Notes: generated by a model not told the origin, from the sequence alone. DNA of 64,000 bases from an uncultured archaeon (GCA_000965745.1 CP009479.1:1344001-1408000); one strand, 5' to 3'. Counted from the first letter of the stretch, positions 54,951 to 63,156 are shown. Translations and numbers: made by a program.

Positions 54951-57900
54951 ATGATTGATATGATGATTGAAAGCCTTGAACTGGATAACTTCAAATCGTT
55001 CGGAAATAAAAGGAAGATTCTTTTCCGGAAAGGATTCACCGTCATAAGCGGTCCGAATGGAAGCGGCAAGAGCAATATAGGCGACTCAATGCTCTTTGTC
55101 CTCGGAGTCCGCTCTTCAAAGGCTGTAAGGGCAGACAGGCTTGCTGACCTGATACACAAGGCTTCCAGCCCTAACAGGCAGAGGGATACCTGCAAGGTCA
55201 CAATCACATTCAACAGTGAAAACCCGGAACTTTCAGAGGATGAAAAGAGGATCAGGCTCACGAGGGAATTGATTTCCGATACCGAAAGTTATCATTCAAA
55301 TTATTACATCAACGGGGAGAGGGTCAGGCACTCCGACGTTGAAAGGCTACTAGACTCACTGCACATATATCTTGACTCATACAGCTTTGTGCTGCAGGGT
55401 GACATCAACAACATAATAAAAATGAGCGGGATCGAAAGAAGAAAACTTCTTGAATCCATCTCCGGCATCGAGAGTTTCGACGTGCAAATAGACAAAGCAA
55501 AATCCGACATCGAAGCGATATCCGGAAACCTGACAAAACTCGAAATTATGCACGAAGAAGCCCAGCGACGACTGGAAGAACTCAGGATAGACAAGGAAAA
55601 TGCTGAAACTTTTAACTCCTATTCACAGAGAATAAAGGACATGAGGGCCACCCTTCTTGGATATGACCTGAACAGGCTGAACAGGGACGTTGAGTCAGTT
55701 GAGACTCAGATTTCCAGCCTTACCTCAGAGATTGACACTTTAAACCTTGAGAACTCAGGCCTCCAGGAAGATGTGGAATCAAAAAGGTCCACACTCAAAA
55801 AGCTCGAGGAGGAAAGAGAAGCGATCTCCGGTTCTGAGCTAGGGGAGATAAGGCAGCACATTGCGGATCTGAGGGTAAAAATCGCTGAGTTCAGGATGAA
55901 GAAGGATGACAGGGGCGAGCAGATCCACAATCTTCAGGAAGAGGTATCCAGCAGGGATAGCCAGTCCGAGGAGATCAGGAAAACAATTTCGTCCAAGAGT
56001 GATGCACTGGAATCCAGGGAGTCGGAACTCATGAGAATTCAGGACGAAATGAGGCGCATAGAAGAACAACTTTCCAAAATGAGGATAGAGTTCAGCGATT
56101 CCACAAAATCAGCAAAGAAGTTTCAGGAGAGGCTTGTGGAGATTGATGCAAGCATAGACAACATCAATTCACAGAACGATGCTGTCAGGGAGAAATATAA
56201 CGAACTAATCCAGGAAAAATCAAAGATCATGACTGAACTGGTCTCCCGTGAGGAAAAGAGAAAAGATCTCGAATTCCAGATTAAGGATGCCCAGTGGAGG
56301 CTTAAGGACATATCGGGAACCGACCAGACCAAGAGGAAGACGCTCCAGGACCTGAGAAAGCAGTACTATGAAGTCAAGAATGAGCTGGAGGAAAACCAGA
56401 AAGCAAAGGAAGCTGCCAAAGACAGGCTTTCTATCCTTTCAAGGGAATATGACAAACTTACCATGAGCATGCAGGGGTCAAGAGGCGCAGGATCGAGAAC
56501 CCTCTCATCAATCATAAACGCCAGAAACCAGAACATGATTGATGGCATTCATGGCCCCATCAGGGACCTCATAAGCTTTGATGAGAAGTACAGAAGTGCC
56601 GTAGAATCAACTGCAGGAGGCAGGCTTAACGCTGTTGTTGTTGAGAATGACCAGGTGGCCCAGGAATGCCTGGAATATCTGAGGAAAGAGAAGATAGGCA
56701 AACTTACATTTCTGCCGCTTAACAAGTTAAGTACAGGCCGGCCAAGGGGAAAGGCAATCATTGTGCATGGGTCAGACGGCTCACTTGGCTATGTGTTTGA
56801 GCATATATCATATGAGAGCGTATATGAGGCTGCTGTCTGGTACGCTTTTCAGGATACGGTTATAGTTGACACTGTCCAGACTGCAAGAAAGTACATGGTC
56901 GGTGTAAGGCTTGTTACCCTTGGAGGGGATATTTTTGAGGCAAGCGGCGCCATCACAGGTGGTTATAATGAAGCACGGAAGAGCAATGCCGCCACGGAAT
57001 CCAAATTATCACAGCTTTCCTCCGAAATTAACGGCCTCAATGAAGAATTAAGCATTCTGAACCCTAAAATAGAGGATGGCAAACACCTTGTGGACCAGCT
57101 TACCACAGAAATGACGGAACTTTCAAAGGAAGAAGGGTCAAAGACCAAAGAGATAGATCAACTCAGGGAGATAGCGGAGAAGGCGGAAAGACAGATCGAG
57201 GGGGTTGACTCACAGGTTGCAGAGTCTGAGGAATCCCTTCGAAAAACTGAAAACCACCTCAAGGCGCTCAATGAAGAAATGCTGGAGAACGGCGACAAAA
57301 TAGACCAGCTTTCAAAGGAGAAATCAGAAATCCATGAGAAGTTGAAATCCCTGTCTCCCGAAACCGTAGAGCTCCAGAGCGACCTGGAGAGGACTTATGC
57401 CTCACTAAGAACCGACGAGCAAAGCATGCTGGATGGTATTTCATCAACAAGATCAGACTTGAAACATATGGAGGGGGACCTCCAGGAAAATGCGAAGCTG
57501 ATAGGTAACAGCACCAATCAGATCGTCCAGCTGAAAGATGAAGTCAATGTCCTGCAGGATCGGATCTCTGAACAGAATACTGAACTTGAAAAATACAGGA
57601 AGATCGAAGAGGAAATGGACCAGAAGACAAAAGAGCAGACAGAGAAGATCCATGCAATAGAGAATGAGGTCGAAAGGATAAGCGGCAGGATGGAGGGAAA
57701 CAAGTCCCTGGTTTCAACAAAGCATGATGTCATTATCACTCTAAGCTCAAGGCTTGAAACTTACAGGACCAAAATTACGGAAATAGAGGAGCAACTGGCC
57801 GAGACCGGTGGAACTGCAATTCAGGAGAAACTTTCAATTACGGAAATAAAAGGCACGATAAGCGATCTTGAGAACAGGATTGAGCAGCTCGGGCCGATAA

Positions 57901-58499
57901 ACCACAAAGCGATTACTGAGTTTGATGAGGTTAGTGTTGAATGTTCAAACATTTCAGAGGAGATGACCAGGCTGAAGGAAGAAAAGAAAAGCCTTGAGGA
58001 TTTGACCGAGAAGCTAAACGAGCAGAAGAAGACAATTTTCCTCAATCTATATCACGCCATAAACCAGCACATGAACGAGATATACGCAACACTTTCGGCA
58101 GGCGGCGAAGCACAGCTGGTACTTTCTGATGAGCTTGACCCGCTGAACGCAGAAGTTTCTATCAGGGCAAGGCCGAAAGGGAGAAACTTCAGCAAGCTCC
58201 ACTCACTTAGTGGCGGGGAAAAGAGCCTGACTGCTCTTTCGTTTATAATGGCTGTTCAGAGAATAAACCCGTCCCCGATATACTATCTTGACGAGGTGGA
58301 CATGTTCCTTGACGGAGCAAACGTGGAAAGGATCGGCAAGATGTTCAAGAGCAACTCCTCAACTTCGCAGATTCTTGTTGTATCGCTGAGGAAAGCGATG
58401 CTGAAATATGCTGAAAACATCATCGGTGTCACAAGTTTCGACGAGGAAAACACTGAAGTATTCGAGAAATCTCTCGGGACTGAACCGGAGGTGTTCTGA
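54951..58499 (+). CDS. smc: Chromosome segregation protein SMC
   Basis: GPNGSGKSN, hinge domain, LSGGEK, LDEVD. Confidence 0.97.
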   Translation: MIDMMIESLELDNFKSFGNKRKILFRKGFTVISGPNGSGKSNIGDSMLFVLGVRSSKAVRADRLADLIHKASSPNRQRDTCKVTITFNSENPELSEDEKRIRLTRELISDTESYHSNYYINGERVRHSDVERLLDSLHIYLDSYSFVLQGDINNIIKMSGIERRKLLESISGIESFDVQIDKAKSDIEAISGNLTKLEIMHEEAQRRLEELRIDKENAETFNSYSQRIKDMRATLLGYDLNRLNRDVESVETQISSLTSEIDTLNLENSGLQEDVESKRSTLKKLEEEREAISGSELGEIRQHIADLRVKIAEFRMKKDDRGEQIHNLQEEVSSRDSQSEEIRKTISSKSDALESRESELMRIQDEMRRIEEQLSKMRIEFSDSTKSAKKFQERLVEIDASIDNINSQNDAVREKYNELIQEKSKIMTELVSREEKRKDLEFQIKDAQWRLKDISGTDQTKRKTLQDLRKQYYEVKNELEENQKAKEAAKDRLSILSREYDKLTMSMQGSRGAGSRTLSSIINARNQNMIDGIHGPIRDLISFDEKYRSAVESTAGGRLNAVVVENDQVAQECLEYLRKEKIGKLTFLPLNKLSTGRPRGKAIIVHGSDGSLGYVFEHISYESVYEAAVWYAFQDTVIVDTVQTARKYMVGVRLVTLGGDIFEASGAITGGYNEARKSNAATESKLSQLSSEINGLNEELSILNPKIEDGKHLVDQLTTEMTELSKEEGSKTKEIDQLREIAEKAERQIEGVDSQVAESEESLRKTENHLKALNEEMLENGDKIDQLSKEKSEIHEKLKSLSPETVELQSDLERTYASLRTDEQSMLDGISSTRSDLKHMEGDLQENAKLIGNSTNQIVQLKDEVNVLQDRISEQNTELEKYRKIEEEMDQKTKEQTEKIHAIENEVERISGRMEGNKSLVSTKHDVIITLSSRLETYRTKITEIEEQLAETGGTAIQEKLSITEIKGTISDLENRIEQLGPINHKAITEFDEVSVECSNISEEMTRLKEEKKSLEDLTEKLNEQKKTIFLNLYHAINQHMNEIYATLSAGGEAQLVLSDELDPLNAEVSIRARPKGRNFSKLHSLSGGEKSLTALSFIMAVQRINPSPIYYLDEVDMFLDGANVERIGKMFKSNSSTSQILVVSLRKAMLKYAENIIGVTSFDEENTEVFEKSLGTEPEVF

Positions 58500-59317
58500 T
58501 GGAAACGGATCAGGTGCTGAGAGATATAGTGGTCCAGGGAACCTTGCTTGATTACAACACCGATGTGTATGCATCCATAATGAAGAAAACCAAGGATTCA
58601 CGGGAATTCTCGGACCCTTTCGCCAGGCTTGTGGCCTCTACATTCAAGCTATGCGAGGAGGGTGTCATAGATCCGTGGAATGTTGATCTTCGAGGTTTTT
58701 CCAAAATATTCATATCAATAATTGACGAGACGTTCGATCGGTTTGGCATGGCTGGGTACCTGATAGGTCAGGCATGGCACATTCTTCTTGAAAAAACGGA
58801 AAGGTCCGTTATGAAGAGGCAGCAGCTGGAGGTCCCGGAAACCTACGTTGAAGAGGGCCCGGATGATGGGATGGAGTCTCCCGTGCTTGAATTTGAGCCG
58901 CGAGCCCTTGAGCTTTCTGAACCGGTCAAGCACAGGGAAAAGAGGCAGGTAATGCTTGTGGAACTGCTTGAGGCAATGCGTGTTGCGGTAAGGAAGGAGA
59001 GGAAGAGAGTTCACACAACCCGGCAGGAAAAGGAAGAATTTGACGCCACAGCCATGGAGGAGATAATATTCGAACTTCACGCCGAAGAACCTGAGAAGGA
59101 AATTGATAACACCTACGAAAAAATACTCTCGCAGTTCGCAGATCAGTTCTACATTGAAGAAATATGGGGAAGCAGCGTGGAGGACAGGTGGGGCTTTTTT
59201 GTATATTGCCTGTTTCTCATGAGGGAGAAGAGGATCATCCTGAAACAGGAAGGCGCTTTTGGGAAAATCTCCATCCAGCGTATCGCGAGGCCGGATGGGC
59301 AGGTCATCAACATTTGA
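58499..59317 (+). CDS. scpA: Kleisin ScpA
   Basis: IDPWNVDL, C-terminal LFL...QEGAFGKI; TGATG overlap with smc. Confidence 0.88.
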   Translation: METDQVLRDIVVQGTLLDYNTDVYASIMKKTKDSREFSDPFARLVASTFKLCEEGVIDPWNVDLRGFSKIFISIIDETFDRFGMAGYLIGQAWHILLEKTERSVMKRQQLEVPETYVEEGPDDGMESPVLEFEPRALELSEPVKHREKRQVMLVELLEAMRVAVRKERKRVHTTRQEKEEFDATAMEEIIFELHAEEPEKEIDNTYEKILSQFADQFYIEEIWGSSVEDRWGFFVYCLFLMREKRIILKQEGAFGKISIQRIARPDGQVINI

Positions 59318-59351
59318 GCCTGCTAGGTTGCCAGGAGGAAATCTGCTTTCC

Positions 59352-59600
59352 ATGAAAGATGACGGCACCCTCAGTGCATCTGAAATATCCGAGTACTCAT
59401 TTTGCAGTGTGGCTTGGTACATGGATTCAAACGGCTATCCAAGGAGCACAATATCTTCCAAAAGGATGGAGAATGGCAGGAAAATGCACAAGAAGCTTGA
59501 GCCGAGGTACAAAAGGGTAAGCATTGCTGCCAGACTGTCGATTGCTGCCATTGTTCTACTTTCAATAATATTGGTGGCCTTTGCCGCAGGGCTGATCTGA
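59352..59600 (+). CDS. Cas4-like nuclease N-terminal half with C-terminal TM helix
   Basis: LSASEISEYSFCSVAWY, GRKMH, then a hydrophobic helix; AGGAGG at 59333-59338. Confidence 0.75.
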   Translation: MKDDGTLSASEISEYSFCSVAWYMDSNGYPRSTISSKRMENGRKMHKKLEPRYKRVSIAARLSIAAIVLLSIILVAFAAGLI

Positions 59601-60116
59601 GTGGATGCTTATGAGATATACGCGATCCTCTTTCTTCTCATAATGCTCTTTGTGATAATGTCAGCCGTCCTTTCCCGCTCCAGAAAGAAATTTGCAATGC
59701 CCGATGGAAAGGCAGTATATGGAGACCTCATGGCTGAGGGGAAAATCCTGAGATCACGAAGGTACGGCCTAACGGGAAAGCCTGACAAGATTGTGCAGAA
59801 CGGGAAAGAAGTGGTGCCCTACGAGTACAAGTCAACAGATGCTGTAAGGCCCAGGGAGGGGCACATGCTCCAGATGGCCGCATACTTTGTGATACTGGAG
59901 GAGAACTTCCCGGGCTCAAAGGTTGAATACGGCATACTGAAGTACAAGAATTATGCATTCAGGATTGAAAACAGCCAGCGGCTCCGGGAAGAGCTCTTCA
60001 ATGTAATGGGCAGGATAAGGGGGAACCTTGGGATGCCTGAACCCAACCATAATAATCCGGGAAGGTGCGTATATTGCAGTTTCCGTGGAACCTGTTCAAA
60101 AAAGTTAATTAAATGA
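59601..60116 (+). CDS. Cas4-like PD-(D/E)XK nuclease C-terminal half with N-terminal TM helix
   Basis: GKPD, EYKS, QMAAY, CVYCSFRGTC. Confidence 0.88.
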   Translation: MDAYEIYAILFLLIMLFVIMSAVLSRSRKKFAMPDGKAVYGDLMAEGKILRSRRYGLTGKPDKIVQNGKEVVPYEYKSTDAVRPREGHMLQMAAYFVILEENFPGSKVEYGILKYKNYAFRIENSQRLREELFNVMGRIRGNLGMPEPNHNNPGRCVYCSFRGTCSKKLIK

Positions 60117-61159
60117 GACAGTATGTGCGCTGGTTCATGGATAAACTAGAACTCCTAGCCAGAAACATGGTGGAAGTGATCACGGAAGCTGAAGCCAAGG
60201 ACGCACTGGAATCAGGGAGGAACAAGGCATACATTGGTTTTGAGCCTTCAGGTCTGCCGCACATCGCCACGGGGCTCCTCTGGCCAAGAAAACTTAACGA
60301 TCTTATAGAGCTTGGGCTGGACACCACCGTACTCCTTGCTGACTGGCATGCCAAGGTGAACGACAAGCTCGGCGGAGACCTTTCCAGGATTCAGGAGAGT
60401 GGCCGCCTTCTCCTGAAGAGCATGAAGGTTATGGGCCTCAGCGACAAGGTCAAGTTTCTCTGGACAAGTGACATGGTTTCGGACCCGGAATACTGGAGCA
60501 CACTCCTAAACGTGGCAAAAACGGCCAATCTTTCACGCATAAGGCGCGCCCTGCCAATAATGGGAAGAACCGAGGAGGATGCGGACAAAGATTTCAGCAA
60601 GTACATCTATCCTCTAATGCAGGTTACAGACATTTTCTACATGGACCTGGATTTTGCTTTTGGCGGAATGGACCAGAGGCACGCGCACATGCTCGCCAGG
60701 GACGTGGCAGAAAAAATGGGCAGAAAGAAAGTTATATCTGTGCACGGCCCCCTCCTTGGAAGCCTTACCGGGACGGGCAGGATGGATTCATTCAAGAAGA
60801 TGTCAAAGAGCGACCCTAACTCAGCAATATTCCTTTTTGATCCTCCTGAAAAGGTGAGGTCCAAGATAAAGAAGGCATACTGTCCAATCAAGGAGGTAGA
60901 AGGGAACCCCGTAATGGACATAATACGACACATAATAATGCCGTATTATGGGGAGAACTTTTTGATACGTAGGCCTCCGCAGAAAGGTGGTGAAATTTCC
61001 CCAGAAACATATGGCGAGCTTGAGAAGCTATATGTCAATGGCGACATCCATCCGGTTGATCTCAAGAACGCGGTCTCTGACGCACTAAACGAAATGATAG
61101 CCCCGGCTAACAGGCTCGTCGAAAGAGAAGAGATTGATCTGAGCAATTTCCAGGTCTAG
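60113..61159 (+). CDS. tyrS: Tyrosine--tRNA ligase
   Basis: YIGFEPSG, YPLMQ, GGMDQ, KMSKS; start may be 60137. Confidence 0.95.
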   Translation: MRQYVRWFMDKLELLARNMVEVITEAEAKDALESGRNKAYIGFEPSGLPHIATGLLWPRKLNDLIELGLDTTVLLADWHAKVNDKLGGDLSRIQESGRLLLKSMKVMGLSDKVKFLWTSDMVSDPEYWSTLLNVAKTANLSRIRRALPIMGRTEEDADKDFSKYIYPLMQVTDIFYMDLDFAFGGMDQRHAHMLARDVAEKMGRKKVISVHGPLLGSLTGTGRMDSFKKMSKSDPNSAIFLFDPPEKVRSKIKKAYCPIKEVEGNPVMDIIRHIIMPYYGENFLIRRPPQKGGEISPETYGELEKLYVNGDIHPVDLKNAVSDALNEMIAPANRLVEREEIDLSNFQV

Positions 61160-61435: not shown

Positions 61436-62455
61436 TCAAAAGAATGAGTCAAGATTGGCCTGCGAAGTTTTCCCGAATGCCTTCTCAAGAGTATCAAGAT
61501 AAGGTGTTACACGCCCCTCAGAGAAGTTGTGCTCTTCACACAGGAACCTCAGTATCCCTTCTCTGTCCGGTTTATTAAAGGTGAGGTCAAAGTCTGTTTT
61601 TACATCGGGGTTCATGAAAATTTCTATGATTCTGTCCTGGTTCTCTATCTCCTGATCCTTCTCCTTCAGCACAGTTGCAATGTCTCCATGCTTCTTTATC
61701 AGCTTGAGTGCAGTCTTGGGGCCTATACCCTTGATCCCCCTGTTGAAATCTGTCCCAACCAGGATACCTATGTGAATAAGCTGCTCCAGAGTCACTTCAT
61801 TCTTTTTCAGCGTCTCTTCGAGCTCAATGTATTCTGGCTGAACATTGACGTAAATATTCCTTCCGGGCACTTTTCTCCTGCCAAAAACAGCAAAGTTTCT
61901 GAGAATACGTGCTGCACCGAACAGCAGGCAGTCATAATCCTGAGATATGACGCCATTGACCTTTCCTACCTTGCTCATGTACGAAGCCTGTGCTTCCCCT
62001 TCGGAAGGCGCTTCAACATAGGGGAGCCCCATCAGTGACAGAAGTTCCATAGTCTCTGAAACGATCTCGCCGCTTACGTAATTTATACGCGATGAAAGCG
62101 ATCTCACACGGGCCGAATCTCCTTCTTCCCTTGCCTGGGCTAGCTCAATCCTTGCTTTCTCCTTGGCAAGTTTTCTTTCCTCGATTGTTCTGTTCTTCAG
62201 AACCGCAGGTTTTCCGTCAAAAACATAGACAGGCCTTATCCCGCTGTCGAGCATGTTTATGGTTCTATAGAAAAGGCCAGATAGATGTGAAGTTACTCTC
62301 CCCTGACTGTCCATCAATGGAGTTCCATCCGGCTGCCTTATGCTGCTCAAAAACTGGTAAAGTATATTGTAGGCATCAACTGAAAAGGTTGAGCCGGAAT
62401 GTTCCCTGAGTGATGTTTGATGTTTGACCACTAGATCTGATATGTCTACGCCCAT
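61436..62455 (-). CDS. fen: Flap endonuclease 1
   Basis: MGVD, YVFDG, EGEAQ, GTDFN, PIP box QANLDSFF. Confidence 0.97.
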
Positions 62456-62457
62456 GT

Positions 62458-63156
62458 TTATCCCTCACAGTTTACTCCATAATCCACTATCCTGTATTCC
62501 GAACTGTTGCCTTCAGGTATGGACCTGTGCTTTGATACTGAAATTCTTCTTTTCCCTCCCGGAAGTTTCTCGAGCTGGTATATGGCCTTCATTGAATGGT
62601 CTATGAGGAAGCCCCCGAAAGGATGGAGCAGTTTTGAATCCATGTCCTGGTAAATCTGGTTGGTGATAAGTACCGGGACATTTCCCCTTAGGGCGATGGA
62701 TGAAAGGAGGCCCAACTGTTTCTGGAATCCCGCTGATCTGGAAGCAGCATCCGCCGTCTTTTCCAGCCTGAAATATTCAGTGAACGAATCCACGATCACA
62801 ATGCCTATCTTCCTGCTCTTTTCGAGCATTTTAAGTACCCTCATTATCGAGAGTTCCTGGTCATCAAGTGAGGAGACTCTGTAAAGCATAAGGCTCTCCG
62901 ACGGCTCACTTGAACCACCGCAGATCTGCATGAACCTGTCCGCGGAAAAACCTTCAGTGTCCAGAAAGACAGCAGTCTTGTCGTTCTTTATGGCTGCAAG
63001 CGCGAAAAGCATTGACATATTGCTCTTGCCTGATCCACCTTCACCGTAGAGTTCCGTTATTACCCCGCTTTCGAGGCCACCATTCATGAGTGAGTCAATG
63101 CAGCTGACTCCCACTGGTAGCTTCTCCAATTTCTGTGCGGGGTCTATTTTCTCCAT
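62458..63156 (-). CDS. radB: DNA repair protein RadB
   Basis: [15 protein letters not shown] motif. Confidence 0.92.

Follow-up and report, generated by a model that had tools for sequence, protein, structure and literature searches.

A predicted membrane-anchored, two-gene Cas4-family nuclease outside CRISPR loci in archaea and Chloroflexota

Two short genes downstream of smc and scpA

The window (the whole 64,000-nucleotide stretch of DNA analysed here) contains near its end a row of plus-strand genes that starts with smc (54951..58499; 1182 aa, Pfam SMC_N and SMC_hinge). Overlapping smc by 1 nt is a 272-aa ORF (58499..59317, +), which has no Pfam or NCBIfam match at any threshold; a profile of 12 of its orthologues recovers the ScpA structures 6IVH (E 8e-7) and 5XNS (E 4e-3) together with the C-termini of cohesin Scc1. 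This ORF is a divergent kleisin that standard annotation would miss, and we call it scpA. It ends 34 nt before the first of two short genes, ORF A (59352..59600, +; 82 aa) and ORF B (59601..60116, +; 171 aa, GTG start), and the stop of B is in turn overlapped by 4 nt (ATGA) by the start of a gene for a class-I Trp/Tyr-type tRNA synthetase (60113..61159, +), here labelled tyrS. All five genes are on one strand, with overlaps or the 34-nt gap between them. Just downstream of tyrS and convergent with it are fen1 and radB (61436-63156, minus strand), which form with smc-scpA a DNA-metabolism block conserved across the family.

ORF A has the sequence GGAGG at 59334-59338 on the 5' side of its ATG (59352), a start kept as MK[DEPS]DG among the relatives compared in the same genus, and it terminates with a TGA at 59598-59600. 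Its translation contains the strings SASEISEYSFC, which ends in the only cysteine of the protein (Cys18), and GRKMH, which ends in His46; these N-terminal elements are followed by a single predicted C-terminal transmembrane (TM) helix at about residues 57-82 (59520..59597, +), the last ~25 residues being hydrophobic (KD 2.98). Four Lys/Arg residues occur in the 15 residues that precede this helix and none afterwards, and as the protein stops at the end of its helix it has no extracellular tail. ORF A alone aligns in register with positions 3-44 of the Cas4 model TIGR00372 (E 2.7e-4, under the cut-off) and with positions 4-47 of the PADLOC Cas4 model (E 2.3e-5), so the Cas4 N-terminal homology that an earlier reading of the sequence alone had assigned to it is recovered by profile comparison. 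A profile of 24 A proteins compared with the PDB gives as its top, statistically weak match residues 9-54 of 8D3L, a type I-C Cas4 (E 0.19), an alignment that is in register for the Cys, a Trp and the G-x-x-x-H motif, with Gly42 and His46 of A aligned with the GQHLH segment of 8D3L. In 24 A/B pairs drawn from two domains of life, A is invariant at Ser10, Cys18, Trp22, Gly28, Gly42 and His46. Sequence clusters of A-like proteins belong to no Pfam family and are named 'hypothetical protein'.

ORF B has the converse layout, with one predicted TM helix at about residues 6-24 (59616..59672, +; KD 2.96), no Lys/Arg before it and five in the next 15 residues, beginning with the string SRSRKK, and thereafter a Cas4 catalytic core. 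This core contains the motifs GKPD (59-62), EYK (75-77), QMAAY (91-95) and CVYCSFRGTC (156-165), the last of which holds all three cysteines of the protein (Cys156, Cys159 and Cys165). ORF B scores above the cut-offs of both Pfam Cas_Cas4 (PF01930; E 6.5e-9, 36.5 bits, cut-off 22.7) and TIGR00372 (68.1 bits, cut-off 65), and a profile of B proteins matches 8D3L, 4R5Q, 7MI4 and 4IC1 in the PDB. The residues of the RecB-type motifs, namely Asp62, Glu75, Lys77, Gln91 and Tyr95, are invariant in alignments of 16 and of 24 sequences, and over the 24 pairs from two domains of life the invariant set of the core also includes His150 and the three cysteines. All motifs that the sequence-only reading had listed for the two ORFs are thus present in the translations as described.

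The A/B junction, family distribution and gene neighbourhoods

A and B share one frame in the window: in the translation of 59259-60119 a single TGA, the stop of A, directly abuts the GTG start of B (TGA-GTG, 59598..59603, +). Three more species of the genus, and one more genus, likewise have the halves in frame; there the stop occupies the same codon (TAA, TGA, TAA and TAA) and a TTG, GTG or ATG directly follows it. In 11 other genera of the family A and B are in different frames, with a spacing that ranges from a 7-nt overlap to 4 nt apart and junctions such as TGATG and ATGA, an arrangement of stop and start that commonly marks translational coupling. Comparisons within the genus gave a dN of 0.18-0.34 with dS saturated, and dN/dS is at most 0.13 for both halves; both are under purifying selection. 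Three other soil-metagenome studies provide contigs across the junction, two of which have a depth of 136 and 107; the TGA is unchanged in them, and the only two differences that they show, 59579 C>T and 59684 A>G, are at third positions and are synonymous by codon reading. As a separate observation, one relative (L008:1440-1540, +) has no ATG, GTG or TTG near the junction in the frame of B and shows a run of six T there, which could reflect a homopolymer error in this MAG or an unusual start codon.

A pattern search with the B alignment over 185,579 species genomes yielded 80 loci, which are distributed over Thermoplasmata, many Methanothrix/Methanotrichaceae, one Methanoregula MAG and the Chloroflexota (Anaerolineae, Chloroflexia, Oscillochloris, Roseiflexaceae and Thermanaerothrix). 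By script, 74 of the 80 show a B ORF with a TM helix at its start and, directly on its 5' side, a separate A ORF with one C-terminal TM helix, the TM segment of B being scored as two in three of these loci; the remaining six comprise one false motif match and five contig-edge cases or regex misses. No fused form was encountered in these 80 loci, and a Chloroflexota locus read by eye confirmed the split layout. The gap between A and B in Chloroflexota can reach 30-170 nt. A search of 1.84 billion cluster representatives with the A profile gave 1564 matches at E<=1e-3, of which 630 also pass E<=1e-10; the best 150 are all 65-139 aa long and matched end to end.

These data bear on two accounts in which A and B would not be two genes. 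The shared frame with its single TGA, and the occurrence of unsplit membrane forms in the same class (see below), are what would be expected if a Cas4-like gene with a TM-hairpin insert had been broken by a nonsense mutation or by an assembly error. We regard this account as scarcely credible, given that four further species, at saturated synonymous divergence, retain the stop at the same codon and always have a start codon next to it, that the split is kept in 74 of 80 loci across two domains of life, that both halves are under the constraint noted above, and that independent metagenome contigs contain the same TGA at considerable depth. A different account holds that, in this genus, obligatory read-through or recoding yields the functional protein, a single 254-aa chain with a two-TM hairpin. 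The absence of any spacer between the in-frame halves, in the window's genus as in one further genus, would suit it, and in such a fused chain the soluble parts would stay together on one side of the membrane; the different frames of the halves in 11 other genera of the family and the distances between them in Chloroflexota speak against it. Moreover, no single recoded codon is involved, because the stop is TGA in two of the in-frame species and TAA in three. Obligatory read-through therefore appears improbable, and the in-frame layout in this genus would also allow some read-through product to be made in addition. A and B are, instead of a broken gene, a real and conserved two-gene split.

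In a sample of the class, 119 of 151 genomes gave a match. In most families of the class the match is a single ORF of ~330-350 aa, whose N-terminal motif and core, the same as in the pair, are separated by about four TM helices; the split form was found in 10 of the 19 genomes of the window's family and as a second copy in one other family; one whole family of the class gave no match in 19 genomes. A family of the same order provides genomes in which a split pair (A of ~100 aa and a B frame of 195 aa) occurs together with a fused four-TM copy (L131-L133 with L017 and L020; genomes G028, G032 and G035), so both forms can coexist as paralogues. In a quick maximum-likelihood tree of the C-terminal core (75 rows, 144 columns, LG+G4) all membrane forms group apart from the five canonical Cas4 sequences included (98 SH-aLRT). 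The fused forms constitute one clade (99 SH-aLRT), the B protein of the window is placed within a clade of 19 split forms (98), and the Chloroflexota split forms make up another (95). The pair in the window is thus not a recent local fission of the fused gene of the class. In this tree the fused clade branches from within the split forms, on a backbone supported by only 85-88, and a single clade of all split forms is not rejected by the AU test (p 0.35).

The order smc-scpA-A-B-tyrS is retained in 38 of 38 loci of the window's lineage, in which the identity of ScpA falls to 31-45%, and fen1 and radB come next wherever a locus reaches that far. Together with the 74 two-gene loci this substantiates the expectation that the halves co-occur in relatives. 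The smc-scpA linkage is absent at the Methanothrix, Chloroflexota and fused-form loci, and it constitutes a weak functional hint because it is part of a larger stable housekeeping block with tyrS, fen1 and radB; the gene order may reflect ancestry instead of function. Nine of the 19 genomes of the same family, listed as 97-99% complete, gave no match with the query used, and the pair is therefore dispensable. In a same-family genome without a match to the pair (L160:1204-1473, minus strand) scpA and tyrS are still adjacent, with a gap of ~380 nt that holds an open frame of 89 codons (stop to stop) with a TM helix at its end, no cysteine and no Cas4 motif; this small frame could be what is left of a degraded A gene, or it could encode a small membrane protein with no relation to A.

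The neighbourhoods in other lineages are of different composition. In Methanothrix the pair is flanked by trm5 (divergent) and an unassigned 244-aa gene. In Anaerolineae we observed a recurring same-strand row (L111:6755-11852 and L112:6888-11507, both minus strand) of ssb, a translin-like gene, A, B, nadK (NAD kinase), a B-box zinc-finger gene and an ATPase gene, the product of the last being a 577-587-aa SMC_N/AAA_23 ATPase that looks recN-like. In five families of the class a protein of ~600-880 aa with Lamin-tail (LTD) and PLD-like domains is encoded directly upstream of the fused four-TM gene (L141:5850-7955 on the minus strand, L148:2449-4584, L146:2580-4628, L149:1921-4560 and L144:2032-4626; nearby in L154 and L155), on the same strand as the fused gene and with an overlap of up to 25 nt. 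The LTD+PLD protein matches PLDc_2 (E 1.6e-37) and is DrmC-like in PADLOC. Several of these proteins have a signal-peptide-like hydrophobic start and, at the end, a TM helix with a basic tail, so they are probably extracellular and membrane-anchored, and could be an outside partner, perhaps a nuclease, of the Cas4 on the inside. No homologue of the LTD+PLD protein was found in the window's genome with the query used.

CRISPR components are present elsewhere in this genome. Matches to cas1 lie at genome positions 1251493, 1601730 and 2223667, none of them in the window, and no tandem array was found in its 64 kb. The cas1 gene at 1251493-1252362 is adjoined by a canonical Cas4 gene (1252458-1253039; TIGR00372, 128.8 bits), and the A/B pair, at genome positions 1403352-1404113, is ~150 kb from the nearest cas1. 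The earlier description of the pair as lacking CRISPR thus stands for the window, which has neither cas1 nor array, and needs amending for the genome, which has a CRISPR-Cas system with a Cas4 of its own elsewhere. Given this canonical Cas4 beside a distant cas1, the A/B pair is a second, non-CRISPR (solo) paralogue.

Predicted assembly of one nuclease from two chains

A virtual read-through of A and B matches PDDEXK_1 over 1-246 of 247 (E 6e-13) and TIGR00372 with 85.2 bits; when used as a single sequence to search PDB sequences it gave chance matches plus 7MI4 at E 0.88. Its AlphaFold2 model, made from a 20-row alignment (pLDDT 79.5), contains a long helical hairpin at residues 33-113, and residues 2-254 of this model superpose on the Cas4 domain of 7MI4 with Z 16.7 (rmsd 3.0, 180 aligned), the corresponding Z values being 15.8 for the Cas4 domain of 8D3L and 11.3 for 4IC1 (SSO0001). 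In the Cas4 structure matches the range of the model extends from residue 1 or 2 to residue 253 or 254, and the next fold matches are to Exo5, AdnAB, MGME1, SSO0001, ACE1, AddB and Dna2. Since the Cas4 models and the fold are both matched across the two halves, both halves are needed to cover one Cas4 domain.

The distribution of the functional residues agrees with the earlier proposal that neither half is complete. The 1+3 arrangement of cysteines consists of Cys18 on A and Cys156, Cys159 and Cys165 on B, and the four cysteines of a Cas4 are found only when A and B are taken together. According to the summary given in PMC13621843 the metal ligands of SSO0001 are His62, Asp99, Glu113 and Lys115; by alignment, the equivalent of His62 is on A and those of the Asp, Glu and Lys are on B, which additionally holds the QxxxY motif, and all of these positions are invariant in the 24 pairs.

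The TM segments of A and B are not conserved in sequence over the 24 pairs, which suggests that they are plain anchors. Averaged over these pairs, A has 3.25 Lys/Arg in the 15 residues before its helix and 0.2 in its tail of ~3 residues; B has 0.08 in its N-terminal tail of ~3 residues and 3.6 after the helix. By this positive-inside pattern both soluble parts are predicted to be cytoplasmic, with almost nothing exposed outside, and the two domains would accordingly be on the same membrane face, as the sequence-only reading demanded of a functional pair. A cytoplasmic placement of the soluble parts is also what an Fe-S enzyme requires.

Complex models of B with A as the partner gave ipSAE values of 0.85, 0.85 and 0.87, the best of three controls being 0.00; in calibration, 58 of 80 solved complexes reached the mark used, and so did 2 of 110 mismatched pairs. 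At least 82% of the contacts are common to the runs, with a partner pLDDT of at least 74. In the modelled interface the TM segments pack against each other (B 6-28 with A 52-78), residues 4-25 of A are packed on residues 56-60, 85-98 and 132-165 of B, the Cys region included, and residues 45-46 of A are near residues 77-78 of B. The models support a binding of A to B, and in them the contact of A 15-25 with B 144-165 would let the four cysteines converge. The proposed assembly of the two chains is supported at the level of prediction. As the pair amounts to a structurally solved fold divided in two, the pass in the complex model may come from this likeness, and both the fold and the complex models may score well simply through resemblance to solved single-chain Cas4.

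Based on these observations we propose, with considerable confidence, that A and B are real, translationally coupled genes, and that their products are the two subunits of a single PD-(D/E)XK nuclease, which is membrane-anchored and belongs to the non-CRISPR (solo) members of the Cas4 family. Under this proposal A would insert with its N-terminus in and its C-terminus out, B would insert in the opposite sense (N-out/C-in), and the two helices would pack together as an antiparallel hairpin. Through its cytoplasmic N-terminal segment A would then dock on the core of B and thereby complete a four-Cys Fe-S cluster that bridges both chains, as well as the metal-ion active site, and the product would be a DNA nuclease of the Cas4 type, fixed to the inner side of the membrane.

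Possible cellular roles and comparison with known systems

As to what such an enzyme does, our leaning is guesswork from its context and is directed towards a housekeeping role, such as the processing of DNA ends near the membrane in repair, segregation or the handling of incoming DNA. Housekeeping or repair-type end processing at the membrane is our tentative first choice, short of an even chance; an action on incoming or scavenged DNA, in defence or uptake, ranks behind it as a reasonable possibility, and some quite different function is a minor one. The suggestion of the sequence-only reading that the enzyme processes DNA entering at the membrane is accordingly speculative. One specific form of an action on incoming DNA would be a gatekeeper, in which foreign DNA would be degraded on entry by the tethered nuclease and the tether would keep this enzyme away from the chromosome. 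An enzyme at the inner membrane face would be well placed for this, one Chloroflexota locus has TumE and PemK-type toxin-antitoxin genes as neighbours, and solo-Cas4 relatives act with Argonaute against plasmids according to work cited in PMC12501428. Nevertheless, the pair in the window's lineage belongs to a stable housekeeping block and to no variable defence island, its neighbours in Anaerolineae are ssb, the translin-like gene, nadK and the recN-like gene, and PADLOC returns only generic Cas4 and DruK-like similarity, which makes a gatekeeper function rather unlikely. Still less can be said for CRISPR adaptation in trans, in which the pair would trim prespacers for the Cas1-Cas2 of the CRISPR locus in the same genome. 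The pair does belong to the Cas4 family by HMM and fold, and the genome does have a CRISPR-Cas system, but that locus has its own canonical Cas4 beside cas1, the pair is encoded ~150 kb away in a block kept in all 38 loci, and the membrane forms constitute a clade apart from the sampled canonical Cas4; we therefore consider this role very improbable.

A broader and distinctly speculative proposal, which we consider rather unlikely, goes further. The heterodimer, with an Fe-S cluster and a metal site each placed across two anchored proteins, would be active only at those sites and times at which the anchors are paired at the inner face, would act on DNA that touches the membrane, and would represent a widespread, unrecognised DNA-processing route in archaea and Chloroflexota. 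One candidate substrate would be incoming or scavenged DNA, in view of the probably secreted LTD+PLD enzyme encoded directly upstream of the fused relatives; chromosome ends handled with SMC-ScpA or RecN are the other candidate.

Cas4 and its solo relatives are generally regarded as soluble enzymes made of one chain. The forms described here point to a large, always membrane-embedded branch (at least 630 A-subunit clusters at 50% identity), whose carriers include most families of one archaeal class along with Methanothrix and many Chloroflexota, and which is split in many lineages. The pair provides a testable handle on solo-Cas4 function, namely action on DNA at the membrane, and would be a natural example of two membrane proteins that have an Fe-S cluster and an active site in common, with ligands on two chains. 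The current labels, 'CRISPR-associated protein Cas4' for B and 'hypothetical protein' for A, are misleading. A literature search for membrane-anchored, membrane-bound, split or transmembrane Cas4, with most subscription journals outside its reach, found no paper that describes such a form, in agreement with the earlier statement that a split, double-anchored form has no known characterised precedent; among papers that combine Cas4 with 'transmembrane helices' none seems, by title and abstract, to describe the family of the pair.

With canonical Cas4 (PF01930/DUF83, TIGR00372, COG1468; 7MI4 of the type I-G Cas4/Cas1, 8D3L of type I-C, 4IC1 of SSO0001 and 4R5Q of Pcal_0546) the pair has in common a PD-(D/E)XK core with its Asp, Glu-x-Lys and QxxxY, an N-terminal helix with the first Cys and a His, and a C-terminal CxxCx5C. 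Canonical Cas4 is, however, one soluble polypeptide, whereas the pair consists of two chains that are cut after the His-bearing helix and have one TM helix each, so that the 1+3 Fe-S ligands and the active site are divided between them. Unlike the CAS-Cas4 of adaptation modules, the pair has no cas1, cas2 or array beside it. In this respect it resembles Solo-Cas4, defined as Cas4 genes outside CRISPR-cas loci (Hudaiberdiev et al. 2017, PMC5704561): it too is a Cas4-family gene outside cas loci in archaea and Chloroflexota, and its place in the smc-scpA-A-B-tyrS / fen1-radB block is outside both cas loci and mobile elements. The same phylogenomic survey states that all Cas4 members have four cysteines, and membrane or split forms do not come up in its main text. 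The Solo-Cas4 of M. mazei is described as a high-oligomeric single-chain nuclease (PMC12501428), and the text of that paper does not mention membranes.

The closest relatives are the fused membrane Cas4-like proteins of ~330-350 aa (L017-L020 and L115-L130), which have the same N-terminal motif (..EK[YF].YCP..WW, G..xH) and core, belong with the pair to the same clade apart from canonical Cas4, and show no CRISPR link in the inspected loci. They differ from the pair in being one polypeptide with about four TM helices, in a clade of their own (99 SH-aLRT), while the pair has 1+1. The pair is placed in this membrane-embedded clade by its TM helices, which lie between the His-bearing N-terminal segment and the core, and by its grouping in the tree. 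More distantly, the nuclease domains of AddB, AdnAB, Dna2, Exo5 and MGME1 have the same fold class as the read-through model (Z 9-13), but they are soluble enzymes or parts of large soluble helicase-nuclease machines, and the pair has no helicase domain. In AddB and Dna2 the nuclease domain is stapled by its Fe-S cluster, which links an N-terminal segment to the C-terminal part; in the pair this staple would join two separate membrane proteins.
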